The notes under the pieces are model-generated. The model made no database searches and was not told the DNA's origin. It saw only the letters and a program-made list of their open reading frames with translations. The translations under genes and the position numbers were made by a program. 64,000 nucleotides of DNA from Acidobacteriota bacterium. Lineage in GTDB: Bacteria; Acidobacteriota; Polarisedimenticolia; JACPZX01. Positions 54,967-64,000 of the stretch are shown here, in pieces (the stretch's first letter is position 1; every line of letters begins with the position of its first letter). The stretch lies in the NCBI GenBank assembly GCA_016195325.1, contig JACPZX010000016.1, forward strand, positions 8,703 to 72,702, written 5' to 3'.

Positions 54967-55064
54967 GGAAGCGAATCGGGGCTGGTGTCTCGCACGGACT
55001 TCAAATCCGTTGGCGGTACGCGAGAGCGTGCCGCGGTGGGTTCGATTCCCACACGCTTCCGCCA
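54967..55064 (+). tRNA. selC: Selenocysteine tRNA (tRNA-Sec, anticodon UCA)
   Basis: 98 nt: GGAAGCGAATCGGGGCTGGTGTCTCGCACGGACTTCAAATCCGTTGGCGGTACGCGAGAGCGTGCCGCGGTGGGTTCGATTCCCACACGCTTCCGCCA. It closely parallels E. coli selC (GGAAG…GGACUUCAAAUCC…CUUCCGCCA). Features: 6-bp D-stem with a 4-nt loop, anticodon loop CTTCAAA, a 9-bp extra arm and an encoded CCA. The eighth acceptor pair is A·A. Confidence 0.8.
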
Positions 55065-55194
55065 CCCAATCGCGGAACTCAGCGAGCCGCACGAGAAGAC
55101 CAGGGTCGAGGAGGATCGGATCGACAAGGACAGATGGCGCCTGGACCCGCGGGAGGTCACCTCGGGGTACGAATCGACGTCGCAGCCCACGAGG

Positions 55195-55404
55195 CGCGTG
55201 GCGCACCTTCCTCCCGGCGCAGACGTGCGCGAGTACGTCATCTGGCTCGAGCACCCGCCGACGGGCCAGCGCGTGGAAGGGGTCATCCCCCGTCAGCCCC
55301 ACACGCGGCAGGAGCTGGAGCTCCTGGAGATCGAGCTGCGCAAGGCCCTCTTCGCCGAGCTGGAGCTGAAGGTGTCACGCCACCTCGGCGGCCCGGCAGC
55401 CTGA
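55195..55404 (+). CDS. Hypothetical small protein; coding frame abuts the 3' end of tRNA-Sec
   Basis: High GC3 runs from the tRNA 3' end to the stop at 55404. The first canonical start is GTG 55195 (VAHLPPGADVREYVIWLEHPPTGQRVEG…). No homology recognised. Confidence 0.3.
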   Translation, partial: RVAHLPPGADVREYVIWLEHPPTGQRVEGVIPRQPHTRQELELLEIELRKALFAELELKVSRHLGGPAA

Positions 55405-55423
55405 GATCATGGTCTCCTGACGC

Positions 55424-55966
55424 GTGGCCACCGGCGCGACCATCTACAATTTCGACATCGATCTGGCGGACGCCGACCGGAGCGTCTACGAGTCGCTCGC
55501 GCTTCGCCTGGCTCGTCACCCGTCGGAATCCGAGGAGTACCTGGTGACGCGGGTGCTCGCCTACGCCATGGAGCACGCGGAGGGGATCGCGTTCTCCACC
55601 GGCGGCCTCGCCGACCCGGACGAACCGGCGATGACCGTTCGCGATCTCTCCGGCGCCCTCCGTGTGTGGATCGAGGTCGGCAGCCCGGATGCCGCCCGCC
55701 TGCACAGGGCCTCGAAGGCCTCGCCGCGCGTCGTGGTCTACACCCACAAGGACGCCCAGCGCCTGGCCGGACGCCTGTCGGGCGAGCGCATCCATCGCGC
55801 CGAGGCTCTCGAGCTCTACTCGATCGATCCCGCCCTCATCAGCGCGCTCACGTCACGACTCGATCGGCGGATGGCCTTCGCGCTGTCCATCGCAGGCCGC
55901 GAGCTGTTCGTCTCGATCGGCGCCGACACGCTCACGGGCCGGGTCGTCCGCCGCGCGATCGCCTGA
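55424..55966 (+). CDS. yaeQ: YaeQ family protein
   Basis: GTG start. ATIYNFDIDLADADRSVYESLALRLARHPSESEEYLVTRVLAYAME…VWIEVGSPDAARLHRASKASPRVVVY matches the YaeQ family throughout. Confidence 0.8.
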   Translation: MATGATIYNFDIDLADADRSVYESLALRLARHPSESEEYLVTRVLAYAMEHAEGIAFSTGGLADPDEPAMTVRDLSGALRVWIEVGSPDAARLHRASKASPRVVVYTHKDAQRLAGRLSGERIHRAEALELYSIDPALISALTSRLDRRMAFALSIAGRELFVSIGADTLTGRVVRRAIA

Positions 55967-56030
55967 GTGCGGACCAGGATCGCGCGCGTGCCCCTTGCCG
56001 CGGAGTGTCCGGTCTGAGAGACTGGGTTGA

Positions 56031-56900
56031 ATGTCGCCCGATAACGAGAGGCTGCTGCTCGATGTCCCCTTCTTCGAGAACCTCGACGAGGAAGAAAGAC
56101 GGACGCTGGCCGCCCACGTCGAGACCGTCCGTTACCCGCAGGGCCACGAGCTGTTCGCGGTCGGCGACCCGGGGGACTCTCTCTACGTCCTGACCGGAGG
56201 CGTCGTCGAGATCTATTTCAAGGACAACACCGGCCGTCGCATCGTTCTCGAGACGCTGGGGGCGGGTGAGTTCTTCGGCGAGCTTTCGCTGCTCGATGCG
56301 GGGCCTCGGAACGCCTCGGTCGTGATCAAGGAGGACATGGAGGCCATCCGGGTTGACCGGCACGACCTCGATGCCCTGATTCGACGCCACCCGGACGCCG
56401 CCATGGATCTGCTCGCGGCCACGGGCCGCAGGTTACGACAGACCGTCGGACTCCTGCGGCACACCGCGTCTCGCAACGTGAACCAGGAGGTCGCGGACAC
56501 TCGTACCGCGGTCCAGCGCGTGGCCGACTGGATCGCGGAGTTCTCGGGGAGTCTGACCTTTCTGGTCCTTCACCTGCTGTTCTTCTTCTTCTGGATACTG
56601 CTCAACACGCATTGGGCTCAGAGCTTCGAGGCCCCGTGGATCCGGCCTCTGACCGGATTCGATCCGTTCCCCTACGGCCTTCTCACGATGGCGGTCTCCC
56701 TCGAGGCCATCGTCCTGTCGGTCTTCGTTCTGCTGAGTCAAAGCCGCCAGGTGGCCAAGGACAAGATCCGAGGCGACATCGAGTACGACGTGAACCTCAA
56801 GGCCGAGCTCGAGGTCGCGGAACTTCACGAGAAGGTGGATCGCCTCCACTCGGAAGCGCTCAGTCGCATGGAGCGGATCGAGAAGCTCGTCACGAAATAG
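56031..56900 (+). CDS. Cyclic-nucleotide-binding domain fused to a DUF1003-like membrane domain
   Basis: N-terminal cNMP-binding fold (FFENLDEEERRTLAAH…GEFFGELSLLD…RNASVV). The C-terminal half (LTFLVLHLLFFFFWILLN…FDPFPYGLLTMAVSLEAIVLSVFVLLSQSRQ…) is two TM helices plus a coiled coil, typical of DUF1003. Confidence 0.75.
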   Translation: MSPDNERLLLDVPFFENLDEEERRTLAAHVETVRYPQGHELFAVGDPGDSLYVLTGGVVEIYFKDNTGRRIVLETLGAGEFFGELSLLDAGPRNASVVIKEDMEAIRVDRHDLDALIRRHPDAAMDLLAATGRRLRQTVGLLRHTASRNVNQEVADTRTAVQRVADWIAEFSGSLTFLVLHLLFFFFWILLNTHWAQSFEAPWIRPLTGFDPFPYGLLTMAVSLEAIVLSVFVLLSQSRQVAKDKIRGDIEYDVNLKAELEVAELHEKVDRLHSEALSRMERIEKLVTK

Positions 56901-56965
56901 AAGGGGCGGGCTCACGCTGATAAGGCGGAATCGCGAGCTCCGCGATCTTCGACCGCGCCGAGCCG

Positions 56966-58231
56966 CTACTCCGGGAGGCGCGCCGGGAACGCGAGCTCCC
57001 TCAGGCCCACCGCGAAGAGCGCCACGCTCGTGGCGACGACGAGCGTCCCCGCTACCCGAGCCGAGACGGGGATGCCGACGTTCATGGCCGGTTCGATCGC
57101 GAGACCGAGCACCGCCAGGGCCAGGAAAACGCGTCGCAGCATCGAGGCGCGCGGCGTCGCTCCCTCGCGGGGCCGCGCGAGAAAGATGAGGATCGGGATC
57201 GTCAGAACGAAGTAATGGAGCCATGCGAGGCGCGGGGCGAGGACCACGAGGAGGCAGCCCAGGGCCACGACAAGCTCGTCGCCGAGATCGGCGGCCGCCG
57301 ACCCCCCGCCGCGCCGGGAGGCGGTCCGACTCCGCATCCAGATCGCGGCGGCGAGTGCGGAGATCGCCACGATCGTGAAGGTGAGCGGGGCATCGAGGCC
57401 GAGGTTCTCGGCGGCCAGACGCGACGGCGCGAAGTTCCCGATCTCCACCGAGATGATGTCGCCCGGCAGCGACCCGAGCGCAGAGAGCCAATCCGTCCAG
57501 CACCGGAGCGATCCGAACGCGGCGGCCGAGACGGCGACCGCAAGAGCGACGCCGACTGCGGCGCCGGCGGCGTGCTCCGCCATCTTGCGCAGGCGCCTGC
57601 TCATGATCCAGTGGAGCGTGAGAGCTCCCGGAACGAAGAGAAGATTCGGTTTGAACGCGACGGCCAGGGCGAGGATCAGTCCACCGAGGAAGTCGCGACC
57701 GCGCCAGGGCAGGCGCGTCACCGTGCCGAGGTATGCGGCGAGTGCCGCGAGCTGTATCGCGTTCACGTTACCGACGCGCAGGTCGGATGCGAACGGCATG
57801 AACCAGGCCGTGAAGACTGCGACGGCGCCGAGCGTCACGGGCCACGCGAGCTGCGCGAGCCGGCCAAACGCGATCACACCCGCGGCCATGCACGCGAGAA
57901 GGAGCAGCTGGTAGTTCCTGAGGCTTCTACCGTAGTCGTCCGTCGAAAAGAACCGGAAGAACGTGTAAAGGAAGGGCGACGAGTACGTTTCCAACACCTT
58001 GCGCTTCTCGGCCGCGGCGATCATCGACGCTTGGCCCGAGCGATTCGCCTGATCGAGAAACCTGGCGCCGATGCGGACGCGATCGCCCTCCGAGTAAACG
58101 CTTGCCGGACCGGGCGTCTTCAGCTCGCGTCCGACCGCCCAGAACTGGTAGGCGTCCATGCCCGAGTCGCGCGAGGCGGCCTTCCACGCACTCGTGAGCG
58201 CGAGGCCTGCGAGCAGGACAGCGAAGATCAC
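56966..58231 (-). CDS. Polytopic membrane protein, possibly a GT-C / DUF2029-like glycosyltransferase
   Basis: 421 aa with at least ten predicted TM helices and periplasmic loops carrying conserved Arg/Asp/Lys residues (…AVAFKPNLLF…). GTG start. Confidence 0.5.
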   Translation of the reverse strand: MIFAVLLAGLALTSAWKAASRDSGMDAYQFWAVGRELKTPGPASVYSEGDRVRIGARFLDQANRSGQASMIAAAEKRKVLETYSSPFLYTFFRFFSTDDYGRSLRNYQLLLLACMAAGVIAFGRLAQLAWPVTLGAVAVFTAWFMPFASDLRVGNVNAIQLAALAAYLGTVTRLPWRGRDFLGGLILALAVAFKPNLLFVPGALTLHWIMSRRLRKMAEHAAGAAVGVALAVAVSAAAFGSLRCWTDWLSALGSLPGDIISVEIGNFAPSRLAAENLGLDAPLTFTIVAISALAAAIWMRSRTASRRGGGSAAADLGDELVVALGCLLVVLAPRLAWLHYFVLTIPILIFLARPREGATPRASMLRRVFLALAVLGLAIEPAMNVGIPVSARVAGTLVVATSVALFAVGLRELAFPARLPE

Positions 58232-58445
58232 GTCGGCATTCCTGGGCGGGTGCGCTCGGATGAGATCCTCCGCAAGCTGCCACGGACCTCCGTCCGCGCG
58301 GTGATCGCGAGCGGGCGGGGGTGCCTACAAGACTTCGATCGGGCCAGGGATCATGGCAGGACCGGCGCCGCCCGTCCATCTGTTTTCCACGTCCATTCCC
58401 ATGAGGCGTTCACCCAAGCCGGGGCAGGGCTGGATCTCCACGGCC

Positions 58446-59240
58446 TCACCTCGAAGCGGCGTCGCCGGGCCGGGTGAAAATGCTGCGGAGGAAGTAGTAC
58501 TCGTTGACGGGGCGGTCGTCCGAGAGTGCCTCGGCCGGTACCGGGGCGTCGACGAGGATGCGGGGCGAGAACTCCCGCTTCAGCACGCGCTCGAACTGAT
58601 CCTCTACCGTCGTCGCCGGACCCCACTCCAGGAGGTCCCGGGCCGCCTCCGCCGGCACACGCGCGGCCAGATCGGATGCGCTCCCCTGCGCGATGGGTTC
58701 GGTACTCGCCAGGAAATGACCACCCCACCCCTCCATGGAAGTAAAGGTCCGCAGGTGAGGGAAGCTCTCGTTCAACGCCCTCGCCACGGCGACCACCACA
58801 GTGGGATCACATGGGGGCAGCCACTGGGCCAGGATCCCGCCCGGGCGCAGTCTCTTCTTCGCCGCCTCCTAGAATTGTTTCGAGTAGAGCAGGCTCGATC
58901 CAGCCGCTTCCACGGGAGGCGGCGGGTCCACGGTGATGACATCGAAGCTCTCGCGCGAGCGCTCGAGGAAGCGGCGGGCATCGTCGACGACGATTCGCGC
59001 GGTCGGCAAGTGAATGAGTTTTTCGGCGTCCTGGTGGTAGTACCCGAAGAGCGAGGGAACGCTCGGCACGAGTTCCACCGCCGTGCTGGAAATTCCCCAG
59101 GAGAGCATCGAGCGGAAGGACGTGCCCATCCCGAAGCAGAGCACCAGCCCCTTCTCTGGGCGCCTCTGAAGGAACGCCAGGGGCAGGTGAGCCATCATCT
59201 TGGTGATGGGTGTCAGGTGGGTGCATCCGTGTTCGGTTAG
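58446..59240 (-). pseudogene. Spermidine-synthase-family (PABS methyltransferase fold) gene remnant: N-terminus missing and an in-frame TAG
   Basis: Two same-frame ORFs (58869-59198 and 58446-58799) separated by TAG at 58866-58868: …DVITVDPPPPVEAAGSSLLYSKQF*EAAKKRLRPGGILAQWLPP…. The N-terminal ~60 aa expected for this fold are absent; the frame is closed by TAA ~40 nt upstream of the first Met, close to the IS. Confidence 0.6.
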
Positions 59241-59249
59241 CGGTTTGGA

Positions 59250-60640
59250 AGGAAGAGGGTAGACGAAGGGCCACGTCCTCTGTTCTCATGGGGTTGTCGA
59301 AGCTCCAGGAGATGGAGGAAAAACCGTGGCCCGACACAAGTCTATCGGAATCCGTCGTGAGTTGGAGTGGACGGGACTCGTGAAGCGCCGTCGCAAGATC
59401 GAGCCGATGGCGCTGTTTTGGACGATCGTTCTGGGCTTCGCCGCCGGCAAGGAACGCTCCCTCACGGCTTTGAGGCGCGCGTACGAGCGATGCACCGGCG
59501 CAACGCTGGTGCCGTCGGCCTTCTACGACCGGTTCAGTCAGGCGATGGCGGAGTTCTTCCGCACCGTGGCCGCGGTGATGATGGAGCGGCTCGGCGAGAC
59601 GGACGGGAAGCTCGGAGGAGTTCTCGCGGGGTTCAAGGACGTGTTGCTGACGGACTCGACGCTCGTGAGAGTGCACGATCTCCTGGAAAAGAGCTTCCCG
59701 GCGAGCCGGACGAACCACACGAAGGCGGCGGTGAAGCTGCACGTCGTGATGAGCGTGAAGGGAGGCGGGGCGCACTCGATGAAGATGACGTCGGGGCGGC
59801 AGCACGACGGGCCGGTCCTGCAGGTTGGCCGGTGGGTGAAGGATCACCTGATGCTCTTCGACCTCGGGTACTTCCGCTACGCGCTGTTCGACCAGATCGA
59901 CAGGTTTGGCGGTTACTTCGTCTCGCGCTTGAAGCAGAGCGCGAACCCGGTCGTCGTGGAAGACCCGCAAGAGGGCGGCCGAGGTGGTCTCGTCGGGCGC
60001 CGGCTTCTCGACGTGTTGAAGAGAGTCCGAAGAGAGGAGCTGGACCTGATCGTGGAAGTGCCGTTCCGGCGGCGCGCTTACCTCGGACGACGTTCGGGGG
60101 CAAAGTGCACGCTGAGACTCGTCGGCACGCGCGACAAGGCGACGGGGGCGTGGCACCTCTACTTCACGAACATCCCCGCGGAGAAACTGTCGGCGCGGCA
60201 GGTGGCGACGGTGTACGCGTGCCGCTGGGAGATCGAGCTGCTCTTCAAGGAGATGAAGTCCGAGTACCGGCTCGACGAGGTGCACACGAGCAAGCGGCAC
60301 ATCGTCGAAGCTCTGCTGTACGCCACGGTGCTGACGCTGCTCGTGAGCCGCAAGCTGATGCGAGCGGTCAGAGAGAAACTCCGCTCGACCGGACGGATGG
60401 TTCCACAGGGGCGGTGGGGGGCGGTGTTCGCCGAGATCGCAGCGGACGTACTGAAGCTGGTTCTTGCCCCGGTCGCGCTCGCGCGCGTGCTCGCGGTCCA
60501 CCTGGAGGCGACGCTGCTGCATGAGGCGCTCGATCCGAACCTATCGCGCACGCTGTTGCGAGAGCGCGTTGAGAATGGGGCGACGTGGTGATCGATGGAA
60601 ACCCACGCCAGTCTCCAAGGCCGGGCTCCACGCCACGGCC
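59250..60640 (+). mobile_element. IS4-family insertion sequence; ends approximate, inverted repeats not resolved
   Basis: Transposase gene flanked on both sides by truncated genes: the SpeE-like remnant on the left and an Ig/HYR-like fragment on the right. Confidence 0.45.
59326..60591 (+). CDS. IS4-family DDE transposase
   Basis: 421 aa with the characteristic C-terminal YACRWEIELLFKEMKS (the Y-x-x-R-W-x-I-E-x-x-F-K-x-L-K motif of IS4-type transposases) and conserved DDE spacing. Confidence 0.85.
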   Translation: MARHKSIGIRRELEWTGLVKRRRKIEPMALFWTIVLGFAAGKERSLTALRRAYERCTGATLVPSAFYDRFSQAMAEFFRTVAAVMMERLGETDGKLGGVLAGFKDVLLTDSTLVRVHDLLEKSFPASRTNHTKAAVKLHVVMSVKGGGAHSMKMTSGRQHDGPVLQVGRWVKDHLMLFDLGYFRYALFDQIDRFGGYFVSRLKQSANPVVVEDPQEGGRGGLVGRRLLDVLKRVRREELDLIVEVPFRRRAYLGRRSGAKCTLRLVGTRDKATGAWHLYFTNIPAEKLSARQVATVYACRWEIELLFKEMKSEYRLDEVHTSKRHIVEALLYATVLTLLVSRKLMRAVREKLRSTGRMVPQGRWGAVFAEIAADVLKLVLAPVALARVLAVHLEATLLHEALDPNLSRTLLRERVENGATW

Positions 60641-60950
60641 TCCCCTGCCGGCGTCGCGGGGGACCGTCACCGTCGCGACGCCCCAGCTTGCATTCCCCGC
60701 CGCGTCGGCGCACGAAACGCCGACCGCGTAGACCCGTTCCATCACCGCGCCCGCACCGCCGGCGCGGAGAAGGGCGACCAGCCTCGCCGGGCTCGCCAGG
60801 GGGCCGGGATCGAGGAGAGCGAAATCGGAAGCCGCGATCGGCTCGTTCGCCGTCACCGAGGTGATCTCGCACGTCGGTGCTCCGTTTCCGAAGCCGGTGG
60901 CCTCGACCGCGATCGAGACCGGGAAGAACTTCCGACACGTCCCATGCGAA
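60640..60950 (-). pseudogene. Fragment of an Ig-like/HYR-like domain protein truncated at the IS
   Basis: The minus-strand frame reads …ATGFGNGAPTCEITSVTANEPIAASDFALLDPGPLASPARLVALLRAGGAGAVMERVYAVGVSCADAAGNASWGVATVTVPRD…, a HYR/Ig-like end motif. The frame runs into the 3' end of the transposase and there is no plausible start. Confidence 0.3.
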
Positions 60951-61040
60951 CCTCCTCCGAAACCATGCCGTCGCCCTTGAATCCCGCCCGGAGCAGCCTC
61001 TCTCCGGGCGGGACCATGGGACGTCGACTCGTTCAGCCGC

Positions 61041-61652
61041 CTAGTTGCCGAACTGCCCGAGCGGCCCGTCGCCGTCCGCGAAGTTCGTGGTGTTGAGCAC
61101 CTGGATCCCGGCGGTGTGGTCGCCGTTGAACGGGGTCTGCCCGCCGGGGCAACCCTGGGCCGTCGCCTCGGCCGTCGAGTCGAACCACATCCCGACGTGG
61201 AACATGTGGACCGGCGCCGTCACCGGGTTCGAGGTCGCGTCGGCCGGGTGGACGACCGGAGCCGGGTTCACGGCCGGCGCCACGATGAAGGTCTCGTCGC
61301 TGAAGATCCCGATGAACCGCGCGTGGCCGTTCCCCTGGTCATCGGTCCTCACGTCCCCCTGGTACCAGGCCATGCCGAAGGGGCCGTGGGGAATCTGGAG
61401 GACGAAGACGGTGAAGATGTCGTTGGGGGCCAGCCCCGACACCCTCACGTCCATCTGCTGGCTCACGCCGTGCGGCGTGAGCCTCACCTCGCCCCGGGCG
61501 TTCGGCATGCACGTCGCGACCGTCGCGGGGGCGACCAGGTCGAACGTGAGCGAGGCCTCTTTCCCGGAGGCGAAGGGGGTCGAGCCGGTGAGCGTAAGCG
61601 TCGCTGCCGCGACGAGCAGCGCGGTTCCCATGCGAGTCGGTTTCATGTGCAA
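61041..61652 (-). CDS. Secreted hypothetical protein
   Basis: Signal peptide MKPTRMGTALLVAAATLTLTG, then a beta-rich ~180-aa domain of no recognised family. Lies downstream of the 491-aa secreted protein on the same strand. Confidence 0.6.
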   Translation of the reverse strand: MHMKPTRMGTALLVAAATLTLTGSTPFASGKEASLTFDLVAPATVATCMPNARGEVRLTPHGVSQQMDVRVSGLAPNDIFTVFVLQIPHGPFGMAWYQGDVRTDDQGNGHARFIGIFSDETFIVAPAVNPAPVVHPADATSNPVTAPVHMFHVGMWFDSTAEATAQGCPGGQTPFNGDHTAGIQVLNTTNFADGDGPLGQFGN

Positions 61653-61711
61653 TTCTCCTTATGGCGTTGATGGTTCAAGGTGTTCTTGTGGACGGTGGAC
61701 GGTGTCGGGTG

Positions 61712-63187
61712 CTAACGGTCGTCGCCGTCGCGGCCGGCGGAGGCCGGCACGGCGGGGTTGACTATGGTCGCGGATCCCGTGAGGATCCAGGCCTTCTGGC
61801 TGGGTGCGAAGCGCGGGGCGAGGTAGCCGTCGTTGATCTCGCGCGTCACGGCGAAGCGGTTGAAGGCGGTCGCCGGCAGGAAAAGGCGGGCGTTGTCGGC
61901 GAAGCCGTCGGACGCGCTGTCGACGTCCCCCTCGACGGCAGAGATCACGCCGTCCCGGTCCTGGTCGACTCGGGCCACCTCGAAAGCGTAGGCGTCGAAG
62001 AGGCGCTGCGGGAAGCCGACTCCCCGCTCGAACGAGGCGATCCTCTCGTAGACGTCGAGGTAGATTTCGCGGGCGAGGCCGCTCGGAACGAACCGGTTCC
62101 GGAACTCGCGCTGCGAGTCCTCGTCGCCGTCGAACTTGTCGGGATCGCGGGGAAGGAAGGGACTGTCACCGTACTTCGTCGGGTCGTTCGTGACGCCCGA
62201 TGGTCCCGACCCGGGCACCAAGCTCGACAGGGTGCCGATCAGCCCCGCCTCGAATGTCCCGGGGATTCCGCCGGTGAAGGGGAGCTCGTAGAGCGGGAAG
62301 ACCCAGTCGGTCGTGTAGTTGAACTCCCAGTAGCTGTGCACGTCGCTCTGCTGCATGGCGTTGTAGGCCCCCATGCTGAGCTGGATCGGGACCGTGTTCC
62401 CCTGGATGTCGGGGAAGTGGTCCGACTCGCTCGGGAATCGCACGGGCTTGCCGTCCGAGGTGAAGAGCTCCCCCGCGACGTTGTTTCCCGTCCCCATCGC
62501 CTTGAGCGCGTCGGCGTCCGCCTGGAGGAGCACTCCGAACTGCGCGTGGCCGTCGCCGCGCGGCGAGCCGACGGGCGCGACCTTGAGGTCGTGGATCATC
62601 CACCCCTCGTACCAGCCGCTCTCGTTGTTGATGACGAACATCGGGTCGATGTCGGTGAAGATGTCGATGAAGGCGCGGACGTCGTTCGGATCCGTCGGCA
62701 GGCCGGGCTTCGGCTCGAGGGCGAGGCGGACCGATCCGATCGTGGGGATGCCGCAGTCGGCGCCGGTCACGGTGAGCATGACGGCGTCGTTGATGCCGGG
62801 GAAGAGCGCGCTGAAGACGTTCGGCTCGAACCCACGGGTGTCGAGAAGGTAGTACTGGAAGAGCTGGCTGGGGCCGTCCGCCTCGGCGAACGTCTGCATC
62901 GGGAGAAACGTGTGCGGGCGCCCCGCCATCCGGAGCAGCCTCTCCTTGAGGGGGCGCGGCGTGAAGCGGACGTCGCCGCGCTCGGCGAGGTTCGCCATGT
63001 CGGCCTGCGCGCGCGGGTTCGGATGGCATGGCGGCGGGATCGTGTCCGTCTGGAAGATCGGGCGCTCCCCCTCCCTGTCCTTGTCGTCACGGTGCTGAGA
63101 CTTGCCGTCCGCGAGGCCGTAGCTCCCGGCCCCGGCGAGTGTCAGAGCGGCGGCGACGGCCACCGCGAGTGAAATCCTGGAATTCAT
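61712..63187 (-). CDS. Secreted hypothetical protein with an EF-hand-like Ca-binding loop
   Basis: Signal peptide MNSRISLAVAVAAALTLAGAGS. 470-aa domain of unknown family, with a C-terminal DQDRDGVISAVEGDVD loop. Confidence 0.65.
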   Translation of the reverse strand: MNSRISLAVAVAAALTLAGAGSYGLADGKSQHRDDKDREGERPIFQTDTIPPPCHPNPRAQADMANLAERGDVRFTPRPLKERLLRMAGRPHTFLPMQTFAEADGPSQLFQYYLLDTRGFEPNVFSALFPGINDAVMLTVTGADCGIPTIGSVRLALEPKPGLPTDPNDVRAFIDIFTDIDPMFVINNESGWYEGWMIHDLKVAPVGSPRGDGHAQFGVLLQADADALKAMGTGNNVAGELFTSDGKPVRFPSESDHFPDIQGNTVPIQLSMGAYNAMQQSDVHSYWEFNYTTDWVFPLYELPFTGGIPGTFEAGLIGTLSSLVPGSGPSGVTNDPTKYGDSPFLPRDPDKFDGDEDSQREFRNRFVPSGLAREIYLDVYERIASFERGVGFPQRLFDAYAFEVARVDQDRDGVISAVEGDVDSASDGFADNARLFLPATAFNRFAVTREINDGYLAPRFAPSQKAWILTGSATIVNPAVPASAGRDGDDR

Positions 63188-63214
63188 GCGACTCTCTCCT
63201 TTCGTGAATGCGTT

Positions 63215-63535
63215 TCAGTTCGACTTCGAAGCCTTCCGGTCGTCCGACTCTCCGAGGGCTCGGGTCACTTCGATCCCCTCCTGCGCGAGCACGTCGGCGA
63301 TGAGCGGCGTGCAGCCGACGATGCCGGCTCCGGCCCAGACGAGGCAGACGAGCGCCTGGATGCCGGAGCGACCGATGAAGACCACGCCCGAGAAGTCGAG
63401 CACGACGCGCCGGCCGCGCCGGATCGACTCCAGGCCCTCTCGCTCGAGCAGCTCAGCCCACTCTCCCTCGATCCGGCCCTGGAGAATCAGGACCTCCAAT
63501 CGAGATTCCGTTCGGTTGCGCAGGATGCGAAGCAC
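63215..63535 (-). CDS. STAS-domain protein (anti-sigma-factor-antagonist-like)
   Basis: The C-terminal ~105 aa (LEVLILQGRIEGEWAELLEREGLESIRRGRRVVLDFSGVVFIGRSGIQALV…) fit a STAS/SpoIIAA fold. The start is set at GTG 63535; the track's first ATG at 63715 would add a low-complexity, Arg-rich N-terminus. Confidence 0.55.
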   Translation of the reverse strand: MLRILRNRTESRLEVLILQGRIEGEWAELLEREGLESIRRGRRVVLDFSGVVFIGRSGIQALVCLVWAGAGIVGCTPLIADVLAQEGIEVTRALGESDDRKASKSN

Positions 63536-63725
63536 GCTCGCTCTCCCTTCGTCGTGACGCCGGGACCCTGGACATATCAATGCCCGTGCCAGCGCCGTTC
63601 CGGCGCGGCGATTCGACCGCAATCGGTTCAGGGACGGAGAGTTGGCGGGCGCGGGGTTCGGGAAGCGCAGCGATCGGCTCGCGGGCCGCGAGCCACCAGG
63701 TTGGCGGAATGCCAATGCGGGGGGA

Positions 63726-64000
63726 TCAGGTGGGACGGGAGATGCCGAGCTTGCTCATCCGGGCTTCGAGGGTGGTCCGCTTGAGGCCGAGAATCTTCGC
63801 GGCCCCCTTCTCGCCGCTCACGCGCCAGCCCACGCTCTCGAGGACCGACAGGATGTGCTCGCGCTCGATCTCCTCGAGGGAGTCCCCCGTCGTCTTCCGC
63901 GATCGGGCAACGGGGGCTGCCAGCGAGTCGTCCAGCTCGAGCCGGTTGTTCCGCGAGAGGATGACCGCCCGCTCGATGACGTTCTGCAGCTCCCTCACGT
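63726..64000 (-). CDS. Sigma54-dependent transcriptional activator (NtrC family), C-terminal fragment running off the right edge
   Basis: The …RELQNVIERAVILS… end of the AAA+ sigma54-interaction domain, followed by a Fis-type HTH (GEKGAAKILGLKRTTLEARMSKLGI). Confidence 0.8.
   Translation of the reverse strand, partial: VRELQNVIERAVILSRNNRLELDDSLAAPVARSRKTTGDSLEEIEREHILSVLESVGWRVSGEKGAAKILGLKRTTLEARMSKLGISRPT

Follow-up and report, generated by a model that had tools for sequence, protein, structure and literature searches.

Gene modules and a decayed IS4-family element 3' of tRNA-Sec in an acidobacterial contig

We analyzed the 9 kb that lie 3' of the selenocysteine tRNA gene (tRNA-Sec, selC) in a contig from a metagenome-assembled genome (MAG) of an acidobacterium. 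All coordinates are positions in the 64,000-nt stretch of DNA that was analyzed (hereafter the window), which is GC-rich (about 0.62-0.72 in 2-kb windows); the stretch under study spans 55065-64000. A preliminary description of this DNA, made from the sequence alone, had taken the stretch for an island acquired at tRNA-Sec and decaying. Our results indicate that it is probably a piece of ordinary acidobacterial chromosome made of three native gene modules, with one decayed IS4-family insertion sequence (IS) at a junction between them. M1 comprises a small open reading frame (ORF), YaeQ, and a cNMP-DUF1003 fusion gene; M2, a GT87 gene preceded by a membrane-bound spermidine-synthase-like (SpeE-like) gene; and M3, a cluster probably under the control of a sigma54 activator and encoding a STAS protein, two secreted proteins of 491 and 203 aa, and an Ig-like protein. 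Acquisition of an island at tRNA-Sec was not supported: neither a recombinase nor a repeat of the tRNA was found in the window, the composition of M1-M3 is normal, and the orthologues of M1 and M3 lie on separate contigs.

The decay proposed in the preliminary description holds for 58.4-61.0 kb, where a defective IS lies between two pseudogenes, and does not hold for the rest of the stretch. This patch is probably the product of ordinary IS-associated rearrangement and decay. The genes named earlier (tRNA-Sec, YaeQ, cNMP-DUF1003, GT87, the SpeE-like pseudogene, the IS4 element, the Ig-like remnant, two secreted hypothetical proteins, and STAS) were all found in place, together with one that the earlier list lacked, the conserved small ORF at 55198-55404. 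All ORFs of at least 50 aa in 55065-64000 were listed and scanned against Pfam and NCBIfam. When relatives were compared with the window by tblastx, high-GC noise hid everything except YaeQ, and defined genes were therefore compared by tblastn and blastn.

Modules M1 and M3 in related genomes

The genes of M1 were compared with those of L091, a contig found in a metagenome scan with cNMP-DUF1003 and derived from the same soil metagenome as L088, one of the M3 relatives described below. The features of M1 are as follows.

55101-56901, plus strand: module M1, 88% nucleotide identity to L091 over 1.8 kb
55198-55404, plus strand: small conserved ORF, 95% amino acid identity to L091
55424-55966, plus strand: YaeQ (PF07152, E = 2e-52), 94% amino acid identity to L091
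56031-56900, plus strand: membrane protein, fusion of cNMP_binding and DUF1003 (Pfam), 92% amino acid identity to L091

The homology between M1 and L091 starts ~40 nt after the tRNA and stops 1 nt past the stop codon of cNMP-DUF1003, at 56901. In L091 these genes stand in a context unlike that of the window, with an FG-GAP protein on one side and an unannotated 270-aa ORF, a MacB/FtsX permease, an M23 peptidase, and a subtilase on the other. More distant cNMP-DUF1003 loci have only that gene in common with the window. In another relative, L028, YaeQ is 92% identical at the amino acid level and its upstream context also differs. In the small ORF region (55105-55404, plus strand) the 95% identity to L091 spans 64 residues; a possible ATG start in L091 is ATC in the window, where the small protein would need the GTG at 55198 (68 aa). 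The small ORF gave no Pfam match, even at E values up to 5.

M3 reaches the end of the window and contains the following features in addition to the Ig-like pseudogene, which is listed with the IS below.

61041-61652, minus strand: M3d, secreted 201-203-aa hypothetical protein, intact; 81% amino acid identity to the 201-aa gene at the same position in L087; no Pfam match
61712-63187, minus strand: M3c, secreted 491-aa protein, 87% amino acid identity to L087; no Pfam or PDB match
63215-63535, minus strand: M3b, 106-aa STAS-domain protein with a GTG start at 63535, 74% amino acid identity to the 106-aa STAS gene of L087
63576-63591, minus strand: sigma54-type -24/-12 promoter-like motif TGGCACGGGCATTGAT, one mismatch to TGGCAC-N5-TTGCW, 41 nt upstream of the STAS start
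63726-64000, minus strand: M3a, 3' end of a sigma54-dependent activator gene (AAA lid and Fis-type helix-turn-helix; HTH_8, E = 3.6e-8), which runs off the window

M3 (60616-64000) is collinear with L087 (GCA_035644275.1) and with three soil contigs (L088-L090), at 83% nucleotide identity over 3.1 kb and 73% thereafter. The gene order in these four relatives is sigma54 activator (GAF-AAA-HTH_8), 106-aa STAS protein, 491-aa protein, 201-aa protein, and 172-196-aa protein. The part of the activator encoded in the window shows 88% amino acid identity to the C-terminal end of its L087 counterpart, a GAF-Sigma54_activat-HTH_8 protein of 491 aa. The order activator (full length), 491-aa protein, and 196-aa protein is also kept in a distant homologous locus on a 1.4-Mb contig (L153). 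M3 is thus a coherent conserved cluster and not debris, and the drop in functional coherence that had been proposed for the stretch does not really apply to 60.6-64 kb. As judged from its sequence, the cluster is probably sigma54-dependent. The promoter-like motif is kept as TGGCACGCGCATTGAT in L087 and L088 amid a diverged spacer, the window copy having its mismatch at -12, and the -24/-12 pattern is not enriched over chance in the window as a whole. A GG-N10-GC motif was also observed upstream of the 491-aa homologue in L153.

The matches of the 106-aa protein to STAS and STAS_2 are weak (E = 8e-5 and 2e-4, under the Pfam cut-offs); the 106-aa orthologues of the relatives carry precomputed STAS annotation. 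Both secreted hypothetical proteins are present, their signal-peptide-like N-termini being judged by eye, and neither gave a Pfam match at E values up to 5. The 491-aa protein has over 3,300 homologues; the best 120 show 68-87% identity, and some are labelled Betaproteobacteria and Burkholderiaceae. About 170 positions are invariant in this family, and a DxDxDG-like acidic motif is found near residues 408-423. A profile search of PDB sequences gave no match for the 491-aa protein, and an AlphaFold2 model built from a 35-sequence alignment had a mean predicted local distance difference test (pLDDT) score of 40.7. In near and distant genomes the protein travels with a sigma54 activator and a secreted protein of ~200 aa.

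Since the orthologues of M1 (92-95% amino acid identity) and those of M3 (62-88%) lie on separate contigs and in different contexts in the nearest available soil relatives, the two modules are probably lineage genes and not one co-transferred unit. The closest homologues of the stretch proteins that were tested (YaeQ, the SpeE-like protein, and the 491-aa protein) are acidobacterial: the best matches of YaeQ are Vicinamibacteria MAGs and those of the 491-aa protein include Polarisedimenticolia MAGs. Two database labels appear doubtful: L087, entered as Verrucomicrobiae, shares 83% nucleotide identity over 3 kb with the acidobacterial window, and L010, entered as Bifidobacterium breve, has a YaeQ gene order common to Vicinamibacterales/Acidobacteriota MAGs.

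The IS4-family element and its flanking pseudogenes

The decayed patch and the M2 genes contain the following features.

56966-58231, minus strand: M2a, GT87-family polytopic membrane glycosyltransferase, apparently intact (PF09594, E = 4.7e-10, 40 bits against a cut-off of 25)
58446-59223, minus strand: M2b, membrane-bound SpeE-like pseudogene, 5'-truncated at the IS left end, with an in-frame TAG at 58869-58871
59224-60613, plus strand: defective IS4-family element, left inverted repeat CATCCGTGTTCGGTTA intact at 59224, right inverted repeat lost (alignments with L081, L082, and L083)
59326-60591, plus strand: DDE_Tnp_1 transposase ORF (PF01609, E = 7e-30; NF033592, transpos_IS4_1, 251.7 bits against a cut-off of 115)
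60614-60615, no strand: 2-nt filler TC between the truncated IS end and the Ig-like pseudogene (nucleotide alignments)
60616-61017, minus strand: M3e, Ig-like-domain pseudogene (tblastn of the L087 and L088 proteins, nucleotide alignment)

The earlier assignment of the transposase to the IS4 family was confirmed by the Pfam DDE_Tnp_1 and NCBIfam IS4 models, the latter above its cut-off. The family signature is a single unframeshifted DDE transposase with a Y-(2)-R-(3)-E-(6)-K motif (PMC2266710). In a 16-sequence alignment D110, D179, and E304 as well as Y297, R300, E304, and K311 were invariant, and both the DDE triad and the motif are therefore present in the window protein. The ends of the element were established from three independent related copies (L081, L082, and L083) as CATCCGTG...CACGGATG, or at full extent 5'-CATCCGTG(T/A)TCGGTTAAG...CTTAACCGATCACGGATG-3'. 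The window element resembles the IS231 / ISH8-type subgroups of the IS4 family, whose ends carry 5'-CAT (De Palmenaer et al. 2008, PMC2266710): its remaining left end begins with 5'-CAT, and its DDE transposase is encoded in a single ORF. The complete element is ~1.47 kb in L082, and the full length of the relatives is within the published size range of the family (PMC2266710).

The window copy differs from these family members in two respects. Its homology to the related copies covers 59224-60613 only, the last ~43 nt with the right inverted repeat being gone; the right end (...TAACCGATCACGGATG) is kept in L082 and L083 and deleted in the window. The inverted-repeat motif occurs once in the 64-kb window, at the IS left end, and a repeat search gave no credible inverted-repeat pair around the transposase gene, the right repeat being the deleted one. 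In addition, a 39-nt in-frame deletion between 59364 and 59365 has removed 13 N-terminal transposase codons that are present in every relative. IS4-family elements typically have a ~10-bp target duplication; none was visible in the window, where the right end is missing, and the complete copies in L082 and L083 are not flanked by a clear one either. Hundreds of proteins of about 435 aa are related to the transposase, most of them encoded on isolated contigs of ~1.5 kb. L082 (1-3058) carries the closest complete copy, with a transposase 89% identical, and a second, different DDE_Tnp_1 gene ~240 nt later; IS elements are clustered there.

A cut-and-paste IS4 transposase requires both ends of its element. 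Since the window IS has one end only, it can no longer be excised or moved by such an enzyme. The element is a new, dead member of a well-known family.

To the left of the IS, the SpeE-like gene is cut exactly at the element end. The 5' truncation had been recognized in the preliminary description, and the junction and an additional in-frame TAG can now be added. The ORFs at 58446-58799 and 58869-59198 form one frame that is split by the TAG at 58869-58871 and stays open to the IS boundary. The closest homologues are annotated as membrane-bound spermidine synthase (~420 aa, 422-423; 67% identity, E = 3e-104), and in tblastn the full-length proteins of L084 and L085 align from residue ~155-166 to ~412, starting at window positions 59222-59228 and running down to 58479. 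The remnant thus lacks about 155-165 N-terminal codons. NCBIfam SpeE models match it from model position 67/287 or 296/522, with weak, sub-threshold hits. Unlike the full-length PF01564 membrane form of ~420 aa, it encodes only residues ~155-412 and has an internal TAG; by its sequence it is a pseudogene of the spermidine-synthase-like family and not a functional member. Reading the in-frame stop as a selenocysteine codon was rejected, because it is TAG and not TGA. Neither the missing N-terminus nor the MFS-like gene located before the SpeE-like gene in L085 was found by tblastn anywhere in the window.

In L085 (9036-12677) the gene order is MFS-like, SpeE-like, and GT87, and the SpeE-like and GT87 genes have the same order and orientation in the window (56966-59223). 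This arrangement suggests that the SpeE-like and GT87 membrane proteins are functionally paired. The GT87 proteins of L085 and the window are too diverged for a tblastn match.

To the right of the IS, the junction was resolved to the base pair by alignment: homology to the Ig-like gene of the relatives stops at 60616 and is followed by the two filler bases and the truncated IS. The Ig-like gene is intact in the relatives, where it encodes 172-196 aa. The window copy has lost 145 nt at 60930/60931, in a frameshifting deletion that takes out the signal-peptide region, as well as 21 nt at 60826/60827 and the last ~7 codons at the IS junction. What had been described as an Ig/HYR-like fragment running into the IS is therefore a pseudogene fused to the truncated IS end. 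The fragment has no Pfam match of its own, even at E values up to 5, but 853 proteins contain its domain of ~95 aa, frequently more than once or C-terminally. Since several of those that were tested carry Big_13, Big_6, or HYR domains, Ig-like is a fair label. The genes that come after the Ig-like gene in the relatives, VapB-PIN among them, are missing from the window.

These junctions and lesions are seen in the alignments, and from them we infer an order and number of events. The IS would first have transposed into codon ~155-165 of the SpeE-like gene, which its intact left end still abuts. Afterwards a single illegitimate deletion or rearrangement, one of whose endpoints lay 43 nt inside the IS, would have taken away the right repeat together with the 5' part of the SpeE-like gene and all DNA as far as the 3' end of the M3 Ig-like gene, to which the IS stump would thereby have been fused via the 2-nt filler. 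The one-ended IS would then have been stranded, and further lesions would have followed: the TAG in the SpeE-like gene, the loss of 145 and 21 nt from the Ig-like gene, and the loss of 13 codons from the transposase gene. The patch resembles known IS-associated deletion scars in that a gene is interrupted by the intact end of an IS whose other end is gone together with neighbouring DNA, and in that secondary lesions are present. It differs from them in that the deletion endpoint lies 43 nt inside the IS and not at its tip, which points to illegitimate recombination rather than to a transposase-mediated adjacent deletion.

The 3' flank of tRNA-Sec and alternative readings

The tRNA gene and the spacer that separates it from M1 are the following.

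54967-55064, plus strand: tRNA-Sec (selC), anticodon TCA, CCA encoded (ARAGORN; Rfam RF01852, 77.2 bits against a gathering score of 47)
55065-55100, no strand: spacer of ~40 nt and synteny breakpoint; blastn homology with L091 begins at 55101, and L091 has no tRNA

Upstream of tRNA-Sec the window encodes MreBC, a GGDEF protein, a SurA-like peptidyl-prolyl isomerase, tRNA-Ala, an M19 dipeptidase, and PAP2 proteins. The Pfam and NCBIfam scans of the stretch revealed neither an integrase nor another tyrosine or serine recombinase, and the gaps left free of ORFs measure 133, 214, 127, and ~450 nt, the last of which is the Ig-like pseudogene. The tRNA-Sec sequence whose distal repeat would mark the end of an island is GGGTTCGATTCCCACACGCTTCCGCCA. 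No exact direct match of at least 10 nt to tRNA-Sec occurs downstream within the window, and its last 17 or 27 nt have no second copy in the window when up to three mismatches are allowed. A search for a direct repeat of the tRNA 3' end, the check that the preliminary description had proposed, therefore found none downstream in the window, and its caveat that neither integrase nor attR repeat had been seen was borne out there by the ORF scans and the repeat search. tRNA-Sec simply adjoins M1, and nothing shows site-specific integration there. A 97-nt tRNA-His called by ARAGORN in L028 (7245-7341) was set aside as a probable false positive; it lies inside ORFs and does not align to tRNA-Sec.

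Another check proposed earlier, of composition by GC content at third codon positions (GC3) and k-mers, found the modules unremarkable and the IS alone outlying. With all same-size windows of the upstream 55 kb as reference, M1 (55101-56901), M2 (56902-59223), and M3 (60614-64000) have tetranucleotide and dinucleotide distances at the 42nd-82nd percentile. The IS (1.39 kb, GC 0.643), at the 97th-98th percentile, is the only real outlier among the parts. Small, borderline shifts were seen in GC3 (0.87 vs 0.90 upstream, p = 0.054) and in the codon adaptation index (CAI) trained on the upstream genes (0.65 vs 0.73, p = 0.038). Codon usage is typical in YaeQ and in the genes for the 203-aa and 491-aa secreted proteins (sec203 and sec491; CAI 0.79 and 0.77 vs the upstream mean of 0.73), and 9 of 40 upstream genes have a CAI as low as that of the low-scoring genes of the stretch. 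A drop in coding density had also been proposed. The raw ORF density is level (0.876 vs 0.880 upstream), whereas the density of intact genes, counted by hand from the coordinates, does fall, to about 76%, and this loss comes from the one 2.6-kb patch at 58.4-61.0 kb.

The preliminary description held that full synteny with relatives and a lack of compositional deviation would speak against acquisition. No deviation is seen module by module, whereas the region is a mosaic and not fully syntenic. The absence of synteny says little, because the context of YaeQ is equally unconserved among relatives. YaeQ was found near tRNA-Sec or any other gene of the window in none of 80 related genomes (0/80), and its contexts in the closest of these also differ from each other, with the exception of one subgroup. 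Missing YaeQ synteny was therefore rejected as an argument for an island. Within this lineage, gene order is kept only at the scale of one to five genes, and a break at any given intergenic spacer is thus expected.

Several observations weigh against the native origin proposed here. Synteny with the nearest relative, L091, breaks ~40 nt from the 3' end of tRNA-Sec, and an integration site at the tRNA would look the same. An attR or integrase could lie beyond 64000, to which the search extended, or an empty site could exist in a relative. Measured undivided, the 8.9-kb stretch exceeds every other window of its size in tetranucleotide distance, in a test that is biased since its reference is the upstream DNA itself. 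No close orthologue of M2 was present among the sequences obtained (best SpeE-like protein 67% identical, no GT87 match in the fetched loci), the CAI of the M2 genes and the transposase gene is lowish (0.57-0.64), and M2 could have arrived together with the IS. Finally, the contig is a metagenome assembly, and the only independent assembly that was found, a Logan contig (L086, SRR12113409) 99.93% identical to the window, stops at 61065, upstream of the Ig-like pseudogene. Heterogeneity among strains, or an interruption of coverage at the decayed patch, may account for this end point.

The first of these observations would fit an old island at tRNA-Sec whose composition has ameliorated and whose integrase and attR were lost through IS-associated deletions, or an island that extends past the window. 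tRNA-Sec is a classical island site in enterobacteria (PMC6174562, PMC7545054), the upstream context of YaeQ in L028 differs as well as that in L091, GC3 and CAI are slightly below the upstream values, and a deletion scar is present. We nevertheless consider such an island unlikely: the window has neither integrase nor tRNA repeat, module composition is normal, and the break beside YaeQ is expected anyway. Furthermore, M1 and M3 occur in their nearest relatives at 83-88% nucleotide identity on separate contigs and in unrelated contexts, and so probably did not travel as one unit, and M3 is a conserved, probably sigma54-regulated cluster that is found in a distant genome too. The stretch resembles the enterobacterial selC islands (LEE, PAI-I, SHI-2, and SPI-3) in having accessory-looking genes 3' of tRNA-Sec, an IS and pseudogenes, and a synteny break. 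Unlike these islands, it has no P4-type integrase, no repeat of the tRNA 3' end, and no compositional contrast, and its content consists of lineage-typical modules that relatives carry elsewhere.

It is also quite unlikely that the 3' flank of tRNA-Sec holds an eroded ancient element or a recombination hot spot, with the break 40 nt after the tRNA as a surviving attL and with an integrase and attR that IS-linked deletions would have erased. If there were such an element, selC-type island targeting would be extended to Acidobacteriota. To our knowledge, it has not been described in this phylum.

A third possibility concerns M2 alone, the GT87 gene and the SpeE-like remnant having been brought in with the IS as a small IS-flanked segment between native modules. 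The lack of a close M2 orthologue and the low CAI of the GT87, SpeE-like, and transposase genes would agree with this, as would the homology of M1, which stops exactly at 56901. However, the composition of M2 is at the 42nd-69th percentile of the upstream windows, nine of the 40 upstream genes have a CAI equally low, there is a single IS copy and no flanking pair, faster divergence is expected of a pseudogene than of an intact gene, and the order SpeE-like then GT87 occurs in another acidobacterial genome. This origin of M2 is very improbable.

The remaining alternative is an assembly artefact, in which the MAG contig was joined through two IS copies, one in the SpeE-like gene and one truncated beside the Ig-like gene, so that M2 and M3 would not truly be adjacent. 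Chimeric joins classically arise at IS copies, most related elements have been assembled as isolated contigs of ~1.5 kb, and L086 does not cross the IS. On the other hand, a single contig was found to carry the exact window transposase, the window contains no part of the IS twice, and both junctions are unique and must exist in reads. We regard a chimeric join as improbable, and since each junction alone shows a truncated gene and a truncated IS, the conclusion of decay stands either way.

The proposed native modules with a decayed IS at one junction matter little beyond annotation, where automated pipelines would call the dead IS4-family element and the two pseudogenes as short hypothetical ORFs. 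In genomes with fluid gene order, the proximity of a tRNA gene together with an IS is insufficient for calling an island. The most useful by-product of the analysis is the conserved cluster of sigma54 activator, STAS protein, 491-aa protein, and ~200-aa protein, in which the 491-aa protein, as a member of a highly conserved family with no Pfam or PDB match, is a reasonable target for characterization.

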